A stretch of 51,325 bases of DNA from Eubacteriales bacterium (GTDB lineage Bacteria > Bacillota > Clostridia > Oscillospirales > CAG-272): contig JAZRDG010000097.1 in the NCBI GenBank assembly GCA_045660125.1, forward strand, positions 1 through 51,325. Reading direction: 5' to 3'. This document shows, piece after piece, positions 154-51,325 of the stretch. Every line of letters starts with the position of its first letter. The stretch's first letter is position 1. The position numbers were made by a program, and so were the translations under genes. Below the pieces are notes generated by a model, which saw nothing but the letters and a program-made list of their open reading frames with translations, ran no database searches and was not told the DNA's origin.

Positions 154-185
154 AAAAACCCGAAAGCAAATGCTTTCGGGTTTTT
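154..185 (+). terminator. Rho-independent, bidirectional-type terminator hairpin
   Basis: A5 run, stem CCCGAAAGC/GCTTTCGGG with a 4-nt loop, then T5. Lies immediately before hairpin array 1. No convincing ORF upstream within the window. Confidence 0.6.
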
Positions 186-340
186 CATTTGTGCCGCAGG
201 CACAACATCACTTGCACGTAAGGGCAACTTCATTGCCGCCCTGCGCGGCACAAATGAACGATGTTGAGGCTTTGCCTCAAATGAAGTTGCCTTCGGCAAA
301 TGATGTTGGCTTCGCCAAATGAAGTTGCGCTTCGCGCAAA
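186..340. repeat. Hairpin array 1: variable short hairpins separated by a constant word, mirrored orientation
   Basis: Hairpins: 189-205 (TTGTGCC gca GGCACAA), 212-227 (imperfect), 234-250 (TGCCGC/GCGGCA), 264-280 (TTGAGGC ttt GCCTCAA), 287-299 (TTGCC ttc GGCAA), 306-318 (TTGGC ttc GCCAA), 325-339 (TTGCGC ttc GCGCAA). Word (C)TTCATT(T) at 184-190 and 228-234. Its reverse complement AAATGA(A/T)(G) at 252-258, 279-286, 298-305 and 317-324. Confidence 0.85.
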
Positions 341-402
341 CGGACACGCCCACTCCGCAACTTCACCGCGCCATAAGCGCAAACCGCAGACGCAAATCCA
401 CC

Positions 403-431
403 TTGCACACCCCGCGAAGTTGTGATATAAT
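403..431 (+). promoter_or_regulatory. SigmaA-type promoter with extended -10 and no obvious gene
   Basis: TTGCAC (403-408), 17-nt spacer, TGaTATAAT (-10 at 426-431). Followed only by a 12-codon ORF (455-493) before the AraC promoter. Confidence 0.5.
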
Positions 432-521
432 AGCCCCAAGAAAGGCGGTGTAAAATGAGAAACCGCACCAAGCGAGTCGGTTTGAGTTTATGATTGTGCT
501 ATTTTTGTCGCCGTGCATGCT

Positions 522-589: not shown

Positions 590-1435
590 ATGCAATATTC
601 CCCCGATCTGATCCGCATCTCCACAGAGCTTGAGGCAGACCCACAGAAGTTCTCGCTGTATCTTGTGCACGCAGACGCTTTTTCCTGTGAGCTATCCGAG
701 GTTCGGTGCTATCTCAACGGCTACACGCTCCTATGCCTGAACAACACCGACACCATCAAGGTGCACGGCGGCACGGGCGACGTGCTGGGCTTTTGCTTCC
801 GCCCCGATTTTTATAACATCGGGCTGAGTCGCACGGTCATTGAGAGTGACCGCTATCCCGACCTTCGTGCCAGATACAGTTATCCCGATTTTCACCTGTT
901 TCTGACGCGCGACGAGCGGTATTGCGGGGTTCTCCCCCTGACAGCCGATGCCTACCGCTCCCTGCTCGCCCATTTTCGCGCCGCCGAGCAGTTCATTCGT
1001 GCGCACGGCACCGACCCCATGTGGTCCTGCCACGCCCGTTCACAGCTCATTTCGGTCATGTGCCTTGCCGAAAGTGCCTATCAGGGCAAGCAAACGGGAG
1101 GCGAGGACGACATTGTCCGCTACATCAGAGAGCACGCCGAGCGTCCCATGTCGGTGGAATCCCTTTGCCGTATGTTCAACACCAACCGCACGACACTGAC
1201 CAAAACCATCAAAGCCGCAACGGGACTGCCACCCATGCAGTTCGTTTTGGAGGAACGGCTCAACCAAAGCCGCCCCGATCTGCTGTTCACCTCGCTCCCT
1301 ATTGGCTTTATCGCCATGAAATACGGCTTTTCCGATGCAAACTACTACATCCGTGCATTCAAGCAACGGTTTGGGCAATCCCCCCTGCAATTCCGCAACG
1401 AGCAAATTGAAAAGTGGCACGCCAACAAAGAATGA
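590..1435 (+). CDS. AraC-family transcriptional regulator
   Basis: C-terminal double-HTH AraC signature (IREHAERPMSVESLCRMFNTNRTTLTKTIK...GFSDANYYIRAFKQRFGQSPLQFR). The ATG at 590 has SD AAGAAAGGAA 8 nt upstream. The ORF track starts earlier, at 557. Confidence 0.85.
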   Translation: MQYSPDLIRISTELEADPQKFSLYLVHADAFSCELSEVRCYLNGYTLLCLNNTDTIKVHGGTGDVLGFCFRPDFYNIGLSRTVIESDRYPDLRARYSYPDFHLFLTRDERYCGVLPLTADAYRSLLAHFRAAEQFIRAHGTDPMWSCHARSQLISVMCLAESAYQGKQTGGEDDIVRYIREHAERPMSVESLCRMFNTNRTTLTKTIKAATGLPPMQFVLEERLNQSRPDLLFTSLPIGFIAMKYGFSDANYYIRAFKQRFGQSPLQFRNEQIEKWHANKE

Positions 1436-1447
1436 TAAGGAGTTTTC

Positions 1448-2083
1448 ATGAACAACCGTTATAACACAACTTCGTCCGATACCTACTCCCCCGAAAAGCC
1501 CAATTACGTCAGAACCGCCGTACACGCATTTTTCTACATAATCGTCTACCATATAGCCACCTATCTGCTGTACGCCATTCTCATGAGTCCCTTGGAAAAT
1601 CAGATGGTGGGCGATGGCTATGAACCGCGCTACCGCTTTGTGATGTTCGCCTTTTCGCTTCTCACCTTAGCCATACTTTCCATCGTCATGATTACGGTTT
1701 ACTTTAAGGACGGCTCACGCAAGCGCGCCTATCTTGCCGCCACATCGGTAGAGCTGCGCGGGAAAGAGAATGCGGCAGAAGGAGCAATCCGCTACCGCAA
1801 AACCGCGCTTGTAGAGTCAGTTGTCTCCACCGCACTCCCCGCCGTTCTATGGCTGATCCCCGCCCTTTTTTACACCGTTTCCCTGAGCATGTCCGGCTAT
1901 GGCTACGGCTACGCACAGGCTTGGGGGATCGAGAACTTTTTCATTGGCGCGGTGGGACTGTTCCAGCCCTTCCAAAACGCCCTTATAGGTTGGCTTCTGG
2001 GCGTTGGAATGCTGTTCTGCGTTCACTATTTCGGGCGCATTGCCGCTCATAAGAGCTGGGAAGATAACCGCATTCGCCATTGA
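1448..2083 (+). CDS. Polytopic membrane protein, function unknown
   Basis: SD TAAGGAG 6 nt upstream. Several hydrophobic helices (FFYIIVYHIATYLLYAIL, FAFSLLTLAILSIVMITVYF, LPAVLWLIPALFYTV, LIGWLLGVGMLFCVHYF). Coding-like composition. Confidence 0.7.
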   Translation: MNNRYNTTSSDTYSPEKPNYVRTAVHAFFYIIVYHIATYLLYAILMSPLENQMVGDGYEPRYRFVMFAFSLLTLAILSIVMITVYFKDGSRKRAYLAATSVELRGKENAAEGAIRYRKTALVESVVSTALPAVLWLIPALFYTVSLSMSGYGYGYAQAWGIENFFIGAVGLFQPFQNALIGWLLGVGMLFCVHYFGRIAAHKSWEDNRIRH

Positions 2084-2319
2084 GCAGATATCAAGGGGGC
2101 GAGATTACGTATCATCTTGAAAAGTTCGGCAGGATCCTATTGGAGCTGCGCAAGGAGCGCGGCTGGACACAAAGTACGTTGGCGAAAAAGATGAACCTTT
2201 CTGCACAGTCGGTTTCCAAATGGGAACGCGGCACAAGCTACCCCGATATTGAGTTATTCCCGGTTCTTGCCGAGATTTTTGATGTGGACATAGGCGTTCT
2301 GTTCGGAAAGGATATATGA
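2080..2319 (+). CDS. XRE-family helix-turn-helix transcriptional regulator (small)
   Basis: HTH_3-like motif LRKERGWTQSTLAKKMNLSAQSVSKWERGTSYPDIELFPVLAEIFDV. The TTG start overlaps the upstream stop. The exact start is uncertain (an ATT at 2104 after AAGGGGG is possible). Confidence 0.75.
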   Translation: MSRYQGGEITYHLEKFGRILLELRKERGWTQSTLAKKMNLSAQSVSKWERGTSYPDIELFPVLAEIFDVDIGVLFGKDI

Positions 2320-2351
2320 AAAAAGCACTTGCCCAAGGCAAGTGCTTTTTT
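2319..2351 (+). terminator. Rho-independent bidirectional-type terminator
   Basis: A6, stem AGCACTTGCC/GGCAAGTGCT with loop CAA, then T6. The stem arms are the same as those of the terminator at 51086-51117. Confidence 0.85.
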
Positions 2352-2446
2352 CTATCCAAGCCGCAGGCTTGGTATATCATCCGCCGCAAGGCGGTATATC
2401 ATCAAAGGCGGCACGCCGCCTTTGTATATCATCACGGCAACGCCGT
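2352..2446. repeat. Hairpin array 2: constant word TATATCAT(C) alternating with variable perfect hairpins
   Basis: Word at 2373-2380, 2395-2403 and 2425-2433. Hairpins: 2356-2372 (CCAAGCC gca GGCTTGG), 2381-2394 (CCGCC gcaa GGCGG), 2404-2423 (AAAGGCGG cacg CCGCCTTT), 2434-2446 (ACGGC aac GCCGT). Confidence 0.85.
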
Positions 2447-2579
2447 GCATAAAACCTCCTTTGGCACATTTTTTATTATAATATAATGATGATTTTTTCA
2501 TATGTTCACAGGCAATTTACAATTTTATGATATGATGTATTCTGTATAGTTTTGAAAACTTTTGAAAGGATCTATGATC

Positions 2580-3662
2580 ATGATAAAAATCGAACATCTG
2601 GTAAAAAACTACGGCTCTAACTGCGCTGTGGACGATATCAGCTTCTCGGTGGAATCCGGTGAGATCGTGGGCTTCCTGGGCCCCAACGGTGCCGGCAAAT
2701 CCACGACAATGAACATTCTGACCGGCTATCTCTCGGGTACGTCGGGTAAGGTATCCATCGACGGCATCGACATTCTTGCCGACCCCTTGGGTGCAAAAAA
2801 GCTGATCGGTTACTTGCCCGAACAGCCTCCCCTCTACCTTGACATGACGGTGGACGAATACCTGAATTTTGCTTACGAGCTCAAGGGCTGCAAGCTGCCC
2901 CGCGGCGAGCATATTGCAGAGGTATGCGAGGTCGTCAAGATCGGTGACGTGCGCAAGCGTGTCATCCGTAACCTCTCCAAGGGCTATCGCCAGAGAGTCG
3001 GCATTGCGCAGGCGCTGATCGGCACCCCCAAGGTCATTATCTTTGACGAGCCCACCATCGGCCTTGACCCCAAGCAGATCATTGAGATCCGTAACCTGAT
3101 CAGAACGCTGGGCAAGGGTCACACGGTCATTCTCTCCACGCACATCCTGCAGGAGGTGCAGGCGGTTTGCGACAGAATCGTGATCATCAACAAGGGCAAG
3201 ATCGTAGCGGACGAGCTGACCGAAAACATTTCCCGTGCGGTCGAGAACATCCGCCGCTTTAACGTCAAGATCTGCGGTCCTTCCCGTGAGGTGCTCTCGG
3301 CTATCAAGAGCATGAGCGGCATTGCTTACGCTGAGGTGCTGGCTGAGCGCGACGGCGAGGCTTATACTTACATGATCGAAAGCGAATACGGCGTTGACGT
3401 GCGCAAGAAGCTGTTCTACACCATGGCAGAGCGCGGCTGGGCGATCATTGGCCTGGAAGCGCTTGGCATGAGCCTTGAGGACATCTTTATTACGGTTGTG
3501 GACAAGTCTGCGGACGAGCGACTGAACAAGCCCGGCAGAACCGTGCGCCGCCGCTCTGGCACCAAGGACGCCCTGGAAAAGCAGGTGGCAGAGACCATGC
3601 TGCAGGAGGGCGCTGAAAAGCGTGCCGCTGCCGACGCAACCGAAATTGAGGACGAGGAATAA
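2580..3662 (+). CDS. ABC transporter ATP-binding protein (GldA-like, ABC-2 subfamily) with charged C-terminal tail
   Basis: Walker A GPNGAGKST, signature LSKGYRQRVGIAQAL, Walker B VIIFDEP. SD GAAAGGA lies 9 nt before the ATG at 2580 (ATG at 2574 is an alternative; the ORF track TTG is at 2562). Confidence 0.9.
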   Translation: MIKIEHLVKNYGSNCAVDDISFSVESGEIVGFLGPNGAGKSTTMNILTGYLSGTSGKVSIDGIDILADPLGAKKLIGYLPEQPPLYLDMTVDEYLNFAYELKGCKLPRGEHIAEVCEVVKIGDVRKRVIRNLSKGYRQRVGIAQALIGTPKVIIFDEPTIGLDPKQIIEIRNLIRTLGKGHTVILSTHILQEVQAVCDRIVIINKGKIVADELTENISRAVENIRRFNVKICGPSREVLSAIKSMSGIAYAEVLAERDGEAYTYMIESEYGVDVRKKLFYTMAERGWAIIGLEALGMSLEDIFITVVDKSADERLNKPGRTVRRRSGTKDALEKQVAETMLQEGAEKRAAADATEIEDEE

Positions 3663-3717: not shown

Positions 3718-4464
3718 ATGCTTGCCATCTATAAAAAGGAGATGCGCTCTTATTTCATCAATCCCATCGGATACGTGTTTGCGGGTGTATTCTTCATCAT
3801 GTCGGCACTGCTGTGCTGCTACACCACCATCGTATCCTCCAGCTACGATACCTCCACCTACTTTATGACCCTGATCTTTGCCTTTATCATTCTCATTCCG
3901 CTCCTTACCATGCGTCTGTTTGCGGAAGAGAGAAAGCTGCGTACCGAGCAGCTTTTAATGACCGCCCCCGTTTCGATCACGGGCATGGTCATGGGCAAGT
4001 TCTTGGCAGCTCTGACGCTGTTTGCGTCTTCCCTGTTGATCTCCTGCATCAACTTCATTCCGATCTACGCATTTGCATCGGTTGAGCGCGGCAGCGAGTC
4101 GTACAACACCACCCACATCGGCCCCGTAACCGGTCAGGTCGTAGGCTGCCTTGTAGGCATTCTGCTGATCGGCGCAGCATTCATCGCAATCGGCACGTTT
4201 ATCTCGGCACTGACCGAAAACCAGCTTGCCGCTGCGGTTGTAACCATCTCGGTCATTCTGGGCATGGTGCTTTTGAGCTTTGTCAATACCCTGATCGACA
4301 ACTACGTCATTCGCTTTGTGGTTGACTGGTTCTCGGTTCTCAGCCGCTTCAACACCTTCAGCTACGGTCTGTTTGACTTCTCCGCACTGCTCTATTACCT
4401 CTCCCTGACCTTCGTATTCCTGTTCTTGACCGTCAGAGTATACGAAAAGCGCCGTTGGGGCTGA
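3718..4464 (+). CDS. ABC-2 type transporter permease (GldF-like)
   Basis: N-terminus MLAIYKKEMRSYFINPIGYVFAGVFF is typical of ABC-2 permeases. Six hydrophobic segments. Follows the ATPase directly. Confidence 0.85.
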   Translation: MLAIYKKEMRSYFINPIGYVFAGVFFIMSALLCCYTTIVSSSYDTSTYFMTLIFAFIILIPLLTMRLFAEERKLRTEQLLMTAPVSITGMVMGKFLAALTLFASSLLISCINFIPIYAFASVERGSESYNTTHIGPVTGQVVGCLVGILLIGAAFIAIGTFISALTENQLAAAVVTISVILGMVLLSFVNTLIDNYVIRFVVDWFSVLSRFNTFSYGLFDFSALLYYLSLTFVFLFLTVRVYEKRRWG

Positions 4465-51084: not shown

Positions 51085-51085
51085 G

Positions 51086-51117
51086 AAAAAAGCACTTGCT
51101 TAGGCAAGTGCTTTTTT
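51086..51117 (+). terminator. Rho-independent bidirectional-type terminator
   Basis: A6, stem AGCACTTGC/GCAAGTGCT, T6. The stem arms are the same as at 2319-2351. Confidence 0.85.
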
Positions 51118-51300
51118 CAGTGAAATAAATCCCTGACGGGATTTGTGAAATGCACTTCGTGCGTGAAATACGCTTCGCGTGTGAAATGCGCTGCGGCGCG
51201 TGAGGGGATTTATTTCATTTCACATTGCGACCAACGGGAGCAATATTTCACAATTCACGAAGTGAATTATTTCACATTCGCCGCAAGGCGAATATTTCAC
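51118..51300. repeat. Hairpin array 3: constant word GTGAAAT (left) / ATTTCAC (right) alternating with variable hairpins
   Basis: GTGAAAT at 51120-26, 51145-51, 51163-69 and 51181-87 (degenerate GTGAGG at 51200-05). ATTTCAC at 51217-23, 51245-51, 51269-75 and 51294-300. Hairpins: 51127-44 (AAATCCC tgac GGGATTT), 51152-62 (GCAC ttc GTGC), 51170-80 (ACGC ttc GCGT), 51188-99 (GCGC tgcg GCGC), 51224-44 (imperfect), 51252-68 (AATTCAC gaa GTGAATT), 51276-93 (ATTCGCC gcaa GGCGAAT). Confidence 0.85.
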
Positions 51301-51325
51301 CAAATTTTCGACTCTAAAGTTTTTC

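Follow-up and report, generated by a model that had tools for sequence, protein, structure and literature searches.

A hairpin array in a gut Clostridia contig as one copy of a multicopy terminator-array-promoter module and a divergent relative of Gut-1

What kind of element is a chain of small hairpins that stands between a terminator and a promoter, and what keeps its stems paired? The question is raised by positions 154 to 340 of contig JAZRDG010000097.1 from a Eubacteriales bacterium (assembly GCA_045660125.1; Oscillospirales, CAG-272), whose 51,325 nucleotides constitute the window analyzed here. The original prediction, made from the letters of the window, had described a terminator followed by seven mini-hairpins joined by a short recurring word, and had regarded this array, hereafter array 1, as built by the same rules as another array of the window (array 3) from a different word. 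We show here that positions 154-345, together with a promoter at 403-431, very probably constitute one copy of a conserved, multicopy, intergenic terminator-array-promoter module of gut Clostridia, in which a ribosome-binding site (RBS) follows the promoter. This context is what the original prediction missed: the array is the upstream half of such a module, and the partner gene that would follow the promoter is absent at this locus.

Reading of the sequence from 1 to 900 and a scan for perfect hairpins confirm both the terminator and the seven small hairpins 3' of it. The terminator-type hairpin (154-185), which marks the left boundary of the module, is intrinsic and bidirectional, with a perfect 14-bp stem (AAAAACCCGAAAGC / GCTTTCGGGTTTTT, loop AAAT) flanked by A5 and T5 such that a T-run follows the stem on either strand; a simple terminator scan omits it because the T-run is counted as part of the stem. 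The adjacent left arm (186-233) is oriented on the minus strand, where its linkers read RTGAWR (in plus-strand letters CAT at 186-188, CATCAC at 206-211 and CTTCAT at 228-233), and features hairpin L1 (189-205, 7 bp, TTGTGCC(GCA)GGCACAA) and hairpin L3 (212-227, TTGCAC(GTAA)GGGCAA), in which 5 of 6 bp are formed and a C>A change leaves one A.G mismatch. A centre hairpin of neither orientation (234-250, TGCCGC(CCTGC)GCGGCA, 6 bp) is followed by the central linker CAAATGAACGATG (251-263), which is nearly invariant in 40 copies and at which the polarity of the words flips. The right arm (264-339, plus strand) consists of hairpins R1 (264-280, 7 bp), R2 (287-299, 5 bp, TTGCC/GGCAA), R3 (306-318, 5 bp, TTGGC/GCCAA) and R4 (325-339, 6 bp, TTGCGC/GCGCAA; TTGCGCTTCGCGCAA), joined in turn by ATGAAG, ATGATG and ATGAAG, with the loop TTC in each of R2 to R4. 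Words read on the minus strand are found to the left (TTCAT at 184-188, CATCAC at 206-211, CTTCAT at 228-233) and words read on the plus strand to the right (ATGAAC at 254, ATGAAG at 281 and 319, ATGATG at 300), in agreement with the strand switch noted earlier. The 19-nt period described for the last three units is likewise recovered by Tandem Repeats Finder (278-340, period 19, 3.2 copies), and the differences among the R2, R3 and R4 stems are, as had been claimed, wholly compensatory. A small correction concerns 184-190, previously read as CTTCATT, where the actual letters are TTCATTT.

On its right side the array is closed by a conserved end (340-352, plus strand), where R4 is followed by AACGGA and then by CACGCC, the 5' arm of an optional terminal hairpin of the family, CACGCC(TTC)GGCGTG. 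This hairpin is complete in the second copy of relative L018, in L084 and in L091; the window copy stops at the loop. A spacer (353-402, plus strand) with a 4-bp hairpin and an extra minus-strand word, GTGAAG (358-363), which precedes TTG (355-357) on that strand, connects the array to the promoter and is identical in the relatives L016, L018 and L108. The window copy is slightly damaged: a 23-nt deletion has removed the family's hairpin L2, the C>A change unpairs one position of L3, and the terminal hairpin breaks off at its loop. The array is nonetheless real and far beyond chance: positions 186-340 hold 6 perfect hairpins of at least 5 bp totalling 36 bp, whereas 1000 dinucleotide shuffles of the same stretch average 1.3 hairpins and 7.1 bp and never exceed 5 hairpins or 29 bp. 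Folded as a single strand, the array is also far more stable than its shuffles (z = -7.6 and -7.2 on the two strands), partly because the arms can pair mutually via their linkers. An obligatory arm-to-arm pairing, in the form of a ladder of four-way junctions, was considered and is unsupported, as the arms vary in unit number independently: two left units plus the centre against four right units in the window, three against four in L016 and L018, and eight right-arm units in L108. The word columns never vary. Finally, the open reading frames (ORFs) that cross the array were rejected as genes, since a 23-nt indel falls inside them between close relatives and the same stretch is a noncoding repeat in dozens of genomes; their earlier description as by-products of the repeat is thereby upheld.

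Is array 1 a local product of the window's own sequence, or a member of a family? A scan for exact pattern matches, with each prokaryote species represented by one genome, retrieved 107 loci, about 90% of which belong to metagenome-assembled genomes (MAGs) of uncultured Clostridia, Eubacteriales or Oscillospiraceae from ruminant, rabbit and human guts, and a BLAST search of positions 185-350 against these loci returned 48 near-full copies in 42 of them, at ~72-96% identity. The element they define is ~160-200 nt long and positionally conserved. It starts with the terminator (AAAAAATCC..GGATTTTTT) and CAT, continues with L1 (TTGTG(T)CC(gca)GG(A)CACAA), CATCAT, L2 (TTGCGTG(gca/cttg)CACGCAA), CATCAT, L3 (TTGRSC(gnna)GSYCAA) and CATCAT, and passes through the centre hairpin (TGCCGC(n5)GCGGCA) and CAAATGAACGAKG into R1, ATGAWG, R2, ATGATG, R3, ATGAWG, R4 (TTGCGC(ttc)GCGCAA) and ACGGA; the optional CACGCC(ttc)GGCGTG, 30-50 nt of spacer and TGnTATAAT complete the order. 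The left arm is a set of three GNA-loop hairpins joined by CATCAT, and the right arm one of four TNC-loop hairpins joined by ATGAWG. Each hairpin position keeps its own identity across species; the exact sequence of R4 recurs in 31 other loci and that of L1 in 12, and several MAGs supply three or four separate array loci. Rule-based local generation, one of the two options raised in the original prediction, is not supported by these data: array 1 is a homologous copy of an element with a fixed identity at each hairpin position, present in at least 42 loci of other species. A phage or plasmid origin was rejected, as the dialect was not found in 50,697 phage records (INPHARED), 72,556 plasmid records (PLSDB) or IMG/VR; the 8 exact-pattern matches in the last collection are coding tandem repeats rather than arrays.

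The copies are also fixed in their surroundings. Both edges could be mapped for 42 copies. In 24 of these, the array starts 31-36 nt downstream of the 3' end of a tRNA gene on the same strand, a distance taken up by the terminator, with seven tRNA identities represented; most of the remaining ones are second or third modules of tandem series. On the opposite side, TGnTATAAT follows the right edge of the array in 34 of 48 copies, where the motif starts at 34-37 or 51-54 nt and the -10 hexamer ends 44-47 or 62-64 nt from the array edge. When a full -35/-10 rule is applied, 31 of 43 copies have a promoter on the plus strand behind the array, and minus-strand promoter-like sites, which are scattered and lack the TG, are present in only 15 of 43. 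A dedicated promoter reading into the array was looked for and rejected, the window's candidate (TTTACA-16-TATTAT, 454-427 on the minus strand) not being a conserved feature. In the window, the outward promoter is of the extended -10 type (TTGCAC-17-TGaTATAAT, 403-431, plus strand) and is followed by a cassette-type RBS, AGAAAGGCGGTG (438-449, plus strand), by a 12-codon ORF (455-493, plus strand) that runs into the remnant of an older terminator (~459-486), and by an AraC-family gene. At a separate locus, L095, three consecutive array-promoter-gene modules lie behind one tRNA-Gln (986-3245, minus strand), an arrangement reminiscent of a cassette series, though with no integrase nearby.

What a complete module carries is seen in relative L018, which is ~95% identical over 2.4 kb and shows an upstream cassette 1 that lies mostly outside the window. 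This cassette features tRNA-Thr, tRNA-Tyr, a terminator, an array canonical for the Rfam family Gut-1 (66.4 bits), the promoter TGATATAAT, the RBS AGAAAGGCGGTG, a gene for a 115-residue four-helix-bundle protein of PF05635 (E=1e-24), and a 79-codon ORF; the RBS before the four-helix-bundle gene is the one found behind the window promoter. Positions 2-37 of the window (plus strand) hold the last 11 codons and stop of the same 79-codon ORF (...TSWVYKPIYNT*; L018 4752-5051, minus strand) and thus represent the end of an L018-type cassette 1, so that array 1 belongs to the second of two tandem modules. A search of the window for a four-helix-bundle gene or for traces of one, including the region behind the promoter, gave nothing (tblastn, E >= 7.6). 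In the distant relatives L109-L111, whose AraC proteins are 83-85% identical, a HAD-phosphatase gene, the older terminator of which the window retains a remnant, and AraC follow one another without tRNA, array or cassette, which is the ancestral arrangement. Exact look-ups of the window's AraC protein in the contig index gave no match. As a side observation, the 3' untranslated stretch before the terminator (68-153) contains a T-arm-like GGTCACGAATCC, ends in GCCA and resembles the 3' end of the tRNA-Tyr found upstream in L018; it could be a tRNA-end relic carried along with the module, and no Rfam tRNA match with E<10 was obtained for it.

The PF05635 gene is not peculiar to L018. When ORFs of at least 70 residues were clustered, the PF05635 four-helix bundle emerged as the only real protein family common to many of the 107 loci (16 loci), and no recombinase, integrase, transposase or reverse transcriptase recurs in these loci (up to 8 kb). 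All 11 genes of clade I (MREDKLGDLSMEL...) are preceded by an ATGAWG array. Measured from the start codon, the end of R4 lies 78-98 nt upstream (93-98 in 9 of 10) and the promoter 30-34 nt upstream. Of the 5 genes of clade II (MA[D/E]SKLR...), 4 are preceded by GTGAAAT arrays, and the most divergent clade II member has the GATGAAAT dialect upstream. The association also holds in the reciprocal direction: three clade-I proteins, chosen from a protein search alone (1321 clusters, all PF05635), led to 26 places of three locus types, with words present in 25 of the 25 places that have at least 160 nt upstream, and with tRNAs upstream wherever the contigs reach. Clade I is very abundant, its clusters at 90% identity numbering the same 1321. 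The closest solved structure to the four-helix-bundle protein is the uncharacterized 2RLD (E=8e-23), and PF05635 resembles Avd of diversity-generating retroelements (DGRs; PMC10053308). No paper tying PF05635 to Gut-1 or to hairpin arrays was found in our search of the literature. We conclude with high confidence that the module in its full form lies 31-36 nt downstream of a tRNA gene and drives expression of a small, Avd-like four-helix-bundle gene of PF05635, and that the window holds a gene-less second module. In the loci of clade-I proteins L121-L146, the four-helix-bundle gene overlaps the start of a gene for a 176-residue protein or for a sulfite/nitrite-reductase-like ferredoxin protein, or, in an alternative layout, is followed after ~65 nt by an esterase gene; the four-helix-bundle gene seems to head operons with changing cargo.

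Are the hairpins themselves maintained? Pairing was evaluated for L2, L3, R1, R2 and R4 in 40 copies aligned with MAFFT without reference to a structure. Of 1068 cells, 97.1% are paired, double-sided changes are present in 11 of 27 pairs (86 cells), and none of 500 column shuffles matches any of five pairing measures; when the 3' partners are slid by 1-3 columns, pairing falls to 25-51%. Wobble intermediates account for only 4 cells vs. the 86 with double-sided changes, and many of the switches are from C-G to G-C, which points to an exchange of entire stem variants and not to gradual drift. Base pairing of the array hairpins is kept by selection. The neutral decay of slippage duplicates, named in the original prediction as the outcome that would speak against it, is not observed.

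Conservation at the locus itself is equally tight around the promoter. Across 251-470, which spans the end of the array with its right arm, the spacer, the promoter and the RBS, there is 1 mismatch to L018 and 0 to L016 in 220 nt; the right arm (264-339) has 0 mismatches to either, and 346-470 is identical at 125 of 125 positions in L016 and L108 and at 124 of 125 in L018. By comparison, the neighboring noncoding stretch 471-589 shows 14, 10 and 9 mismatches in 119 nt (88-92% identity) vs. L018, L016 and L108, respectively, and coding regions in close relatives are 95-98% identical. The left arm, by contrast, varies: besides the 23-nt indel, hairpin L3 differs between L018 and L016 by a single compensated change from C-G to A-T. 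Such near-perfect conservation of an array and promoter that lack their gene suggests that they are still in use, with the orphan promoter possibly feeding the AraC-family gene.

These constraints could in principle reflect a promoter-upstream control or insulator region, which would separate the strong upstream transcription unit from the next promoter and be read by an unrelated host factor, be it a nucleoid protein or a supercoil-sensitive structure. The constant position of the array between terminator and extended -10 promoter, with fixed -10 offsets, is in line with such a role, as are the recurrence of the words every 19-23 bp (about two helical turns), the better conservation of the promoter-proximal arm and the fact that most copies precede genes other than the four-helix-bundle one. 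However, a factor that binds duplex DNA needs no hairpin covariation, the spacing within the TTG...CAA foot changes with stem length, and the dialect of the array tracks the clade of the four-helix-bundle protein. Furthermore, we know of no known operator that the array matches. We consider this explanation quite improbable.

How, then, does array 1 relate to the one described class that resembles it? The Rfam Gut-1 model (RF01706) matches array 1 twice, at 256-330 on the plus strand with 28.5 bits (E=0.0021 in 700 nt, E=0.16 in the whole window) and at 177-235 on the minus strand with 19.7 bits, both scores lying below the curated gathering score of 50 bits; the model (positions 1-77) is aligned end to end by cmscan. 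Canonical Gut-1 is present elsewhere in the window, at 51118-51192 (plus strand, 66.9 bits) and 51212-51302 (minus strand, 55.5 bits), and this pair makes up array 3 (51085-51302, both strands), where it stands behind a tRNA-Gln gene and a terminator and its GTGAAAT words converge on the centre. Array 1 shares with Gut-1 the tandem GC-rich mini-hairpins, in runs of at least three consecutive short hairpins with a purine-rich UGAA-type linker (four on the plus strand, three on the minus strand), as well as the C-UUC-G-type loops, a purine-rich heptamer with TGAA, covariation-supported stems and an origin in gut Clostridia or gut metagenomes. Canonical copies are moreover close at hand, both within the window (51118-51302) and just upstream of it in relatives. 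The differences lie in the linker, which is ATGAWG framed by a fixed TTG...CAA foot in array 1 but GUGAAAU in Gut-1, and in the arms, which are divergent in the former and convergent in the latter; furthermore, the published account of Gut-1 covers three hairpins and says nothing of a terminator-array-promoter module, of anchoring behind tRNA genes or of a PF05635 partner. Array 1 is a divergent dialect (linker ATGAWG/CATCAT) and a new topology of the Gut-1 class.

The claim that a second locus follows the same rules with a different word therefore stands in its first half only. Arrays 1 and 3 do belong to one class, the Gut-1 model matching array 3 above and array 1 below its threshold. The words are not truly different: ATGAAG/ATGATG in array 1, GTGAAAT in array 3 and ATGATATA in array 2, the last read on the minus strand, have a common RTGAW core. 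Nor does array 1 mirror array 3, as the arm order is opposite, with words that diverge from the centre in the one and converge on it in the other. Array 2 (2318-2447, minus strand) consists of a terminator and four hairpins joined by TATATCAT. A side observation on these sister arrays concerns their terminators (2318-2352 and 51085-51118) and that at L018 5566-5599, which stand behind unrelated genes and have the near-identical stem GAAAAAAGCACTTGC...GCAAGTGCTTTTTTC with differing loops; the terminator consequently behaves as part of the repeated module.

Gut-1 was described from 43 human-gut metagenome sequences and rated "certainly RNA", without a function or context being assigned (Weinberg et al. 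2010, Genome Biol 11:R31, PMC2864571), and later functional work on it was not found in the literature. Does array 1 act as an RNA? It would do so if the array were transcribed, for example by read-through from the terminator of a tRNA or other gene, and if the chain of hairpins then served as a protein sponge, as a stabilizing structure at a 3' or 5' end, or as the RNA that joins the four-helix-bundle protein in a ribonucleoprotein. The classification of Gut-1 as a small RNA with covariation by Rfam and by Weinberg et al. speaks for this view, and so do the strong covariation of the stems, the heavy transcription of tRNA operons, for which weak read-through would suffice, and the array-like sequence in metatranscriptome contigs. 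The last point is tempered by its numbers: two metatranscriptome runs hold related sequence, only as contigs, and the ratio of array to flank depth is ~15 in RNA runs vs. 5-15 in DNA runs, which is not above the DNA level and is as expected for a multicopy repeat. An RNA partner for the protein would have a precedent, in that Avd works with an RNA in DGRs.

The sequence statistics point the other way. Among 384 distinct word-plus-hairpin units, 78 stems have a single non-Watson-Crick pair, of which G.T pairs number 21 vs. 20 A.C pairs; in a functional RNA strand, G.U would be expected to outnumber A.C clearly, and the lack of such a bias, like the scarcity of wobble intermediates, leans toward DNA. 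The loops of these units are mostly triloops (TTC 53, TGC 30, TAC 19) with a closing 5'C-G3' pair in 254 of 384, and in the dense-array subset of 91 units 56 loops are T..C and 0 are G..A on the word strand, with 83 of 91 closing 5'C-G3', which means that the complementary strand bears C-GNA-G and GNRA loops. According to work by Hirao, Yoshizawa and colleagues, d(C-GNA-G) is reportedly an extraordinarily stable DNA mini-hairpin motif. Triloops, on the other hand, are not favored in RNA, and the supposed sense strand is here dominated by C-G-closed triloops, not by UUCG or GNRA tetraloops. Stem length varies between 5 and 9 bp and the TTG...CAA foot and linker are fixed, a combination that fits recognition of the foot of a folded hairpin and not that of a duplex operator with fixed spacing. 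In addition, the array is found between a strong terminator and an outward-facing promoter with no conserved promoter reading inward, a "sense" arm is present on both strands of each element, and the two dialects have their arms in opposite order. Overall, the four sequence statistics lean to a role at the DNA level, and we regard a structured RNA as unlikely.

A role in DNA could still be that of a selfish or recombinogenic repeat, similar to enterobacterial palindromes or to integron attC sites, at which cassettes are inserted, swapped or copied through a trans-acting recombinase or hairpin-prone replication and which has no regulatory role of its own. Turnover among close relatives is indeed pronounced. 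The array-2 site lies between an XRE gene and the promoter of an ABC transporter, and among relatives that are ~95% identical it holds three or four different sequences: in L018 (2226-2391) a second copy of array 1 that ends with an intact terminal hairpin, in L016 (about 4150-4240) yet another sequence with a different terminator, and in a DNA run a fourth allele of 96 nt. The left junction of the L018 replacement falls within the loop region GCC-GCA-GGC, common to the first hairpins of arrays 1 and 2, and hence inside a hairpin loop, just as the window copy of array 1 is cut at the loop of its terminal hairpin. Unit number varies as well, with eight right-arm units in L108 vs. four in the window where the AraC proteins are 98% identical. 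The tandem array-promoter-gene modules behind one tRNA (three in L095), the constant distance of 31-36 nt behind tRNA genes of 7 identities in 24 of 42 copies and the folding of a single strand into a long imperfect hairpin (z = -7.6 and -7.2) can be added to this side. Several features nevertheless distinguish the array from a mobile repeat: no integrase, transposase or other recombinase recurs in the 107 loci, target-site duplications were not found, each module has its own promoter, unlike integron cassettes, and hairpin identities are positionally conserved across species, unlike those of attC. The tighter constraint on 251-470 than on adjacent noncoding DNA and the failure to find the dialect in the phage, plasmid and IMG/VR collections argue in the same direction, and a purely recombinogenic role therefore appears improbable. 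Separately, in L016 (357-1976) a 1.6-kb insertion in the loop of the terminator equivalent to 154-185 splits that hairpin and carries, on the opposite strand, a gene for a 374-residue XRE-HTH/TPR-like protein.

What might the array then do? The explanation we prefer, and offer only tentatively, is that the array serves as a cis platform for the matching four-helix-bundle oligomer, likeliest as extruded DNA hairpins, and is coupled to the promoter or cassette boundary. In such a model the array would act as a nucleic acid, most likely DNA, in which each GC-rich palindrome could extrude as a mini-hairpin so that one strand displays a C-GNA-G or GNRA loop. The invariant part of the unit is the foot of the stem together with the 6-nt linker (CAA-ATGAWG-TTG), and the ~four units of an arm would form a polar platform recognized by the four-helix-bundle oligomer whose clade matches the dialect. 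Complete cassettes would provide this protein in cis, and at the window locus any supply of it would have to come in trans. The platform would, in turn, regulate or mark the neighboring promoter or the boundary of the cassette. The interiors of the stems would be free to change as long as they remain paired, and units would be swapped between arrays by recombination.

Several points weigh against this model. The co-variation of dialect and clade is explicable by co-inheritance of whole cassettes, and it comprises only three dialect-clade pairs, which are phylogenetically non-independent. Of the 48 copies, 38 precede other genes, among them genes for small membrane proteins and lipoproteins. 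At 13-17 bp, the palindromes are short for elements that would have to extrude spontaneously as cruciforms, and read-through from a strong tRNA operon could make array RNA. Avd, for its part, is reported to bind nucleic acid without sequence specificity. The rating of Gut-1 as "certainly RNA" by Weinberg et al. (PMC2864571) has to be set on the same side.

A wider form of the model, which we hold to be doubtful but worth stating, would make Gut-1-type arrays in general DNA elements, built as chains of extrudable C-GNA-G mini-hairpins whose linkers differ by lineage, that are the specific ligand of free-standing PF05635 oligomers in a widespread, tRNA-anchored terminator-array-promoter cassette system of gut Clostridia, in which gene-less copies control their neighbors in trans, here AraC. 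Gut-1 has been in Rfam since 2010 without an organism, a partner or a function, and PF05635 ("23S rRNA intervening sequence protein") is a very large family whose free-standing members have no known function. The data presented here suggest that these two orphans belong together, that the element is a larger polar module behind tRNA genes, and that hairpins in DNA account for its sequence statistics better than an RNA does. If this is true, an entry that Rfam lists as "RNA" would have to be classed anew, a ligand open to testing would be at hand for a large family of proteins, and abundant gut bacteria would be found to use a new type of promoter-linked cassette boundary.

Besides Gut-1, several known DNA elements resemble the array in part. 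In DGRs, the target site has to form a hairpin or cruciform in DNA, whose GC stem (7-10 bp) matters by its structure and not by its sequence and whose GRNA loop is strand-specific (Guo et al. 2011, PMC3240598). The array family shares with it the GC hairpin in DNA whose stem matters by structure rather than by sequence, the G-(R)N-A loop on one strand only and an Avd-family four-helix bundle in the system, although Avd is not established as the factor that reads the DGR hairpin. The DGR site is a single hairpin of 7-10 bp with a 4-nt loop beside a variable repeat, whereas the array family has 7-9 hairpins of 5-9 bp, mostly triloops and conserved linkers; membership was rejected, as neither a reverse transcriptase cluster nor template and variable repeats recur in the flanks of the 107 loci. 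Repetitive extragenic palindromes and the mosaic elements that they form in Enterobacteria (REP/BIME) are similarly multicopy palindromes after gene ends or terminators, with rapid turnover between strains, alternating unit orientation and short conserved linkers. REP stems, however, are conserved in sequence within a genome, measure 20-40 nt, begin with a 5' tetranucleotide of the GTAG type and occur together with RAYT transposases (IS200/IS605-like). In the arrays it is the stems that vary and the linkers that are conserved, no transposase family recurs in the 107 loci and a promoter is part of the module, and the array was accordingly not assigned to this class. Integron attC sites and cassettes, which are defined by a nearby intI integrase, promoterless cassettes and R''-L''/L'-R' boxes with extrahelical bases, were set aside, as no integrase recurs in the flanks and 31-34 copies carry their own extended -10 promoter. 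CRISPR, with its repeats of 23-50 nt and unique spacers of comparable size, was likewise rejected, the constant part of the unit being 6-12 nt, the variable part a palindrome of 13-17 nt and the period 19-23 nt, with no cas-like family recurring, and so were plasmid or phage iterons and origins (direct repeats of 17-22 bp beside a rep gene), given the lack of any phage, plasmid or IMG/VR match and the chromosomal context behind tRNA genes. Finally, the parC-ParR system of plasmid R1 also features two sets of short repeats with a period of ~20 bp beside the promoter of a small autoregulated gene whose product binds them as an oligomer, a likeness that concerns the possible mode of action; it differs in being plasmid-borne and in its duplex repeats, which are bound by ribbon-helix-helix proteins and show no hairpin covariation.

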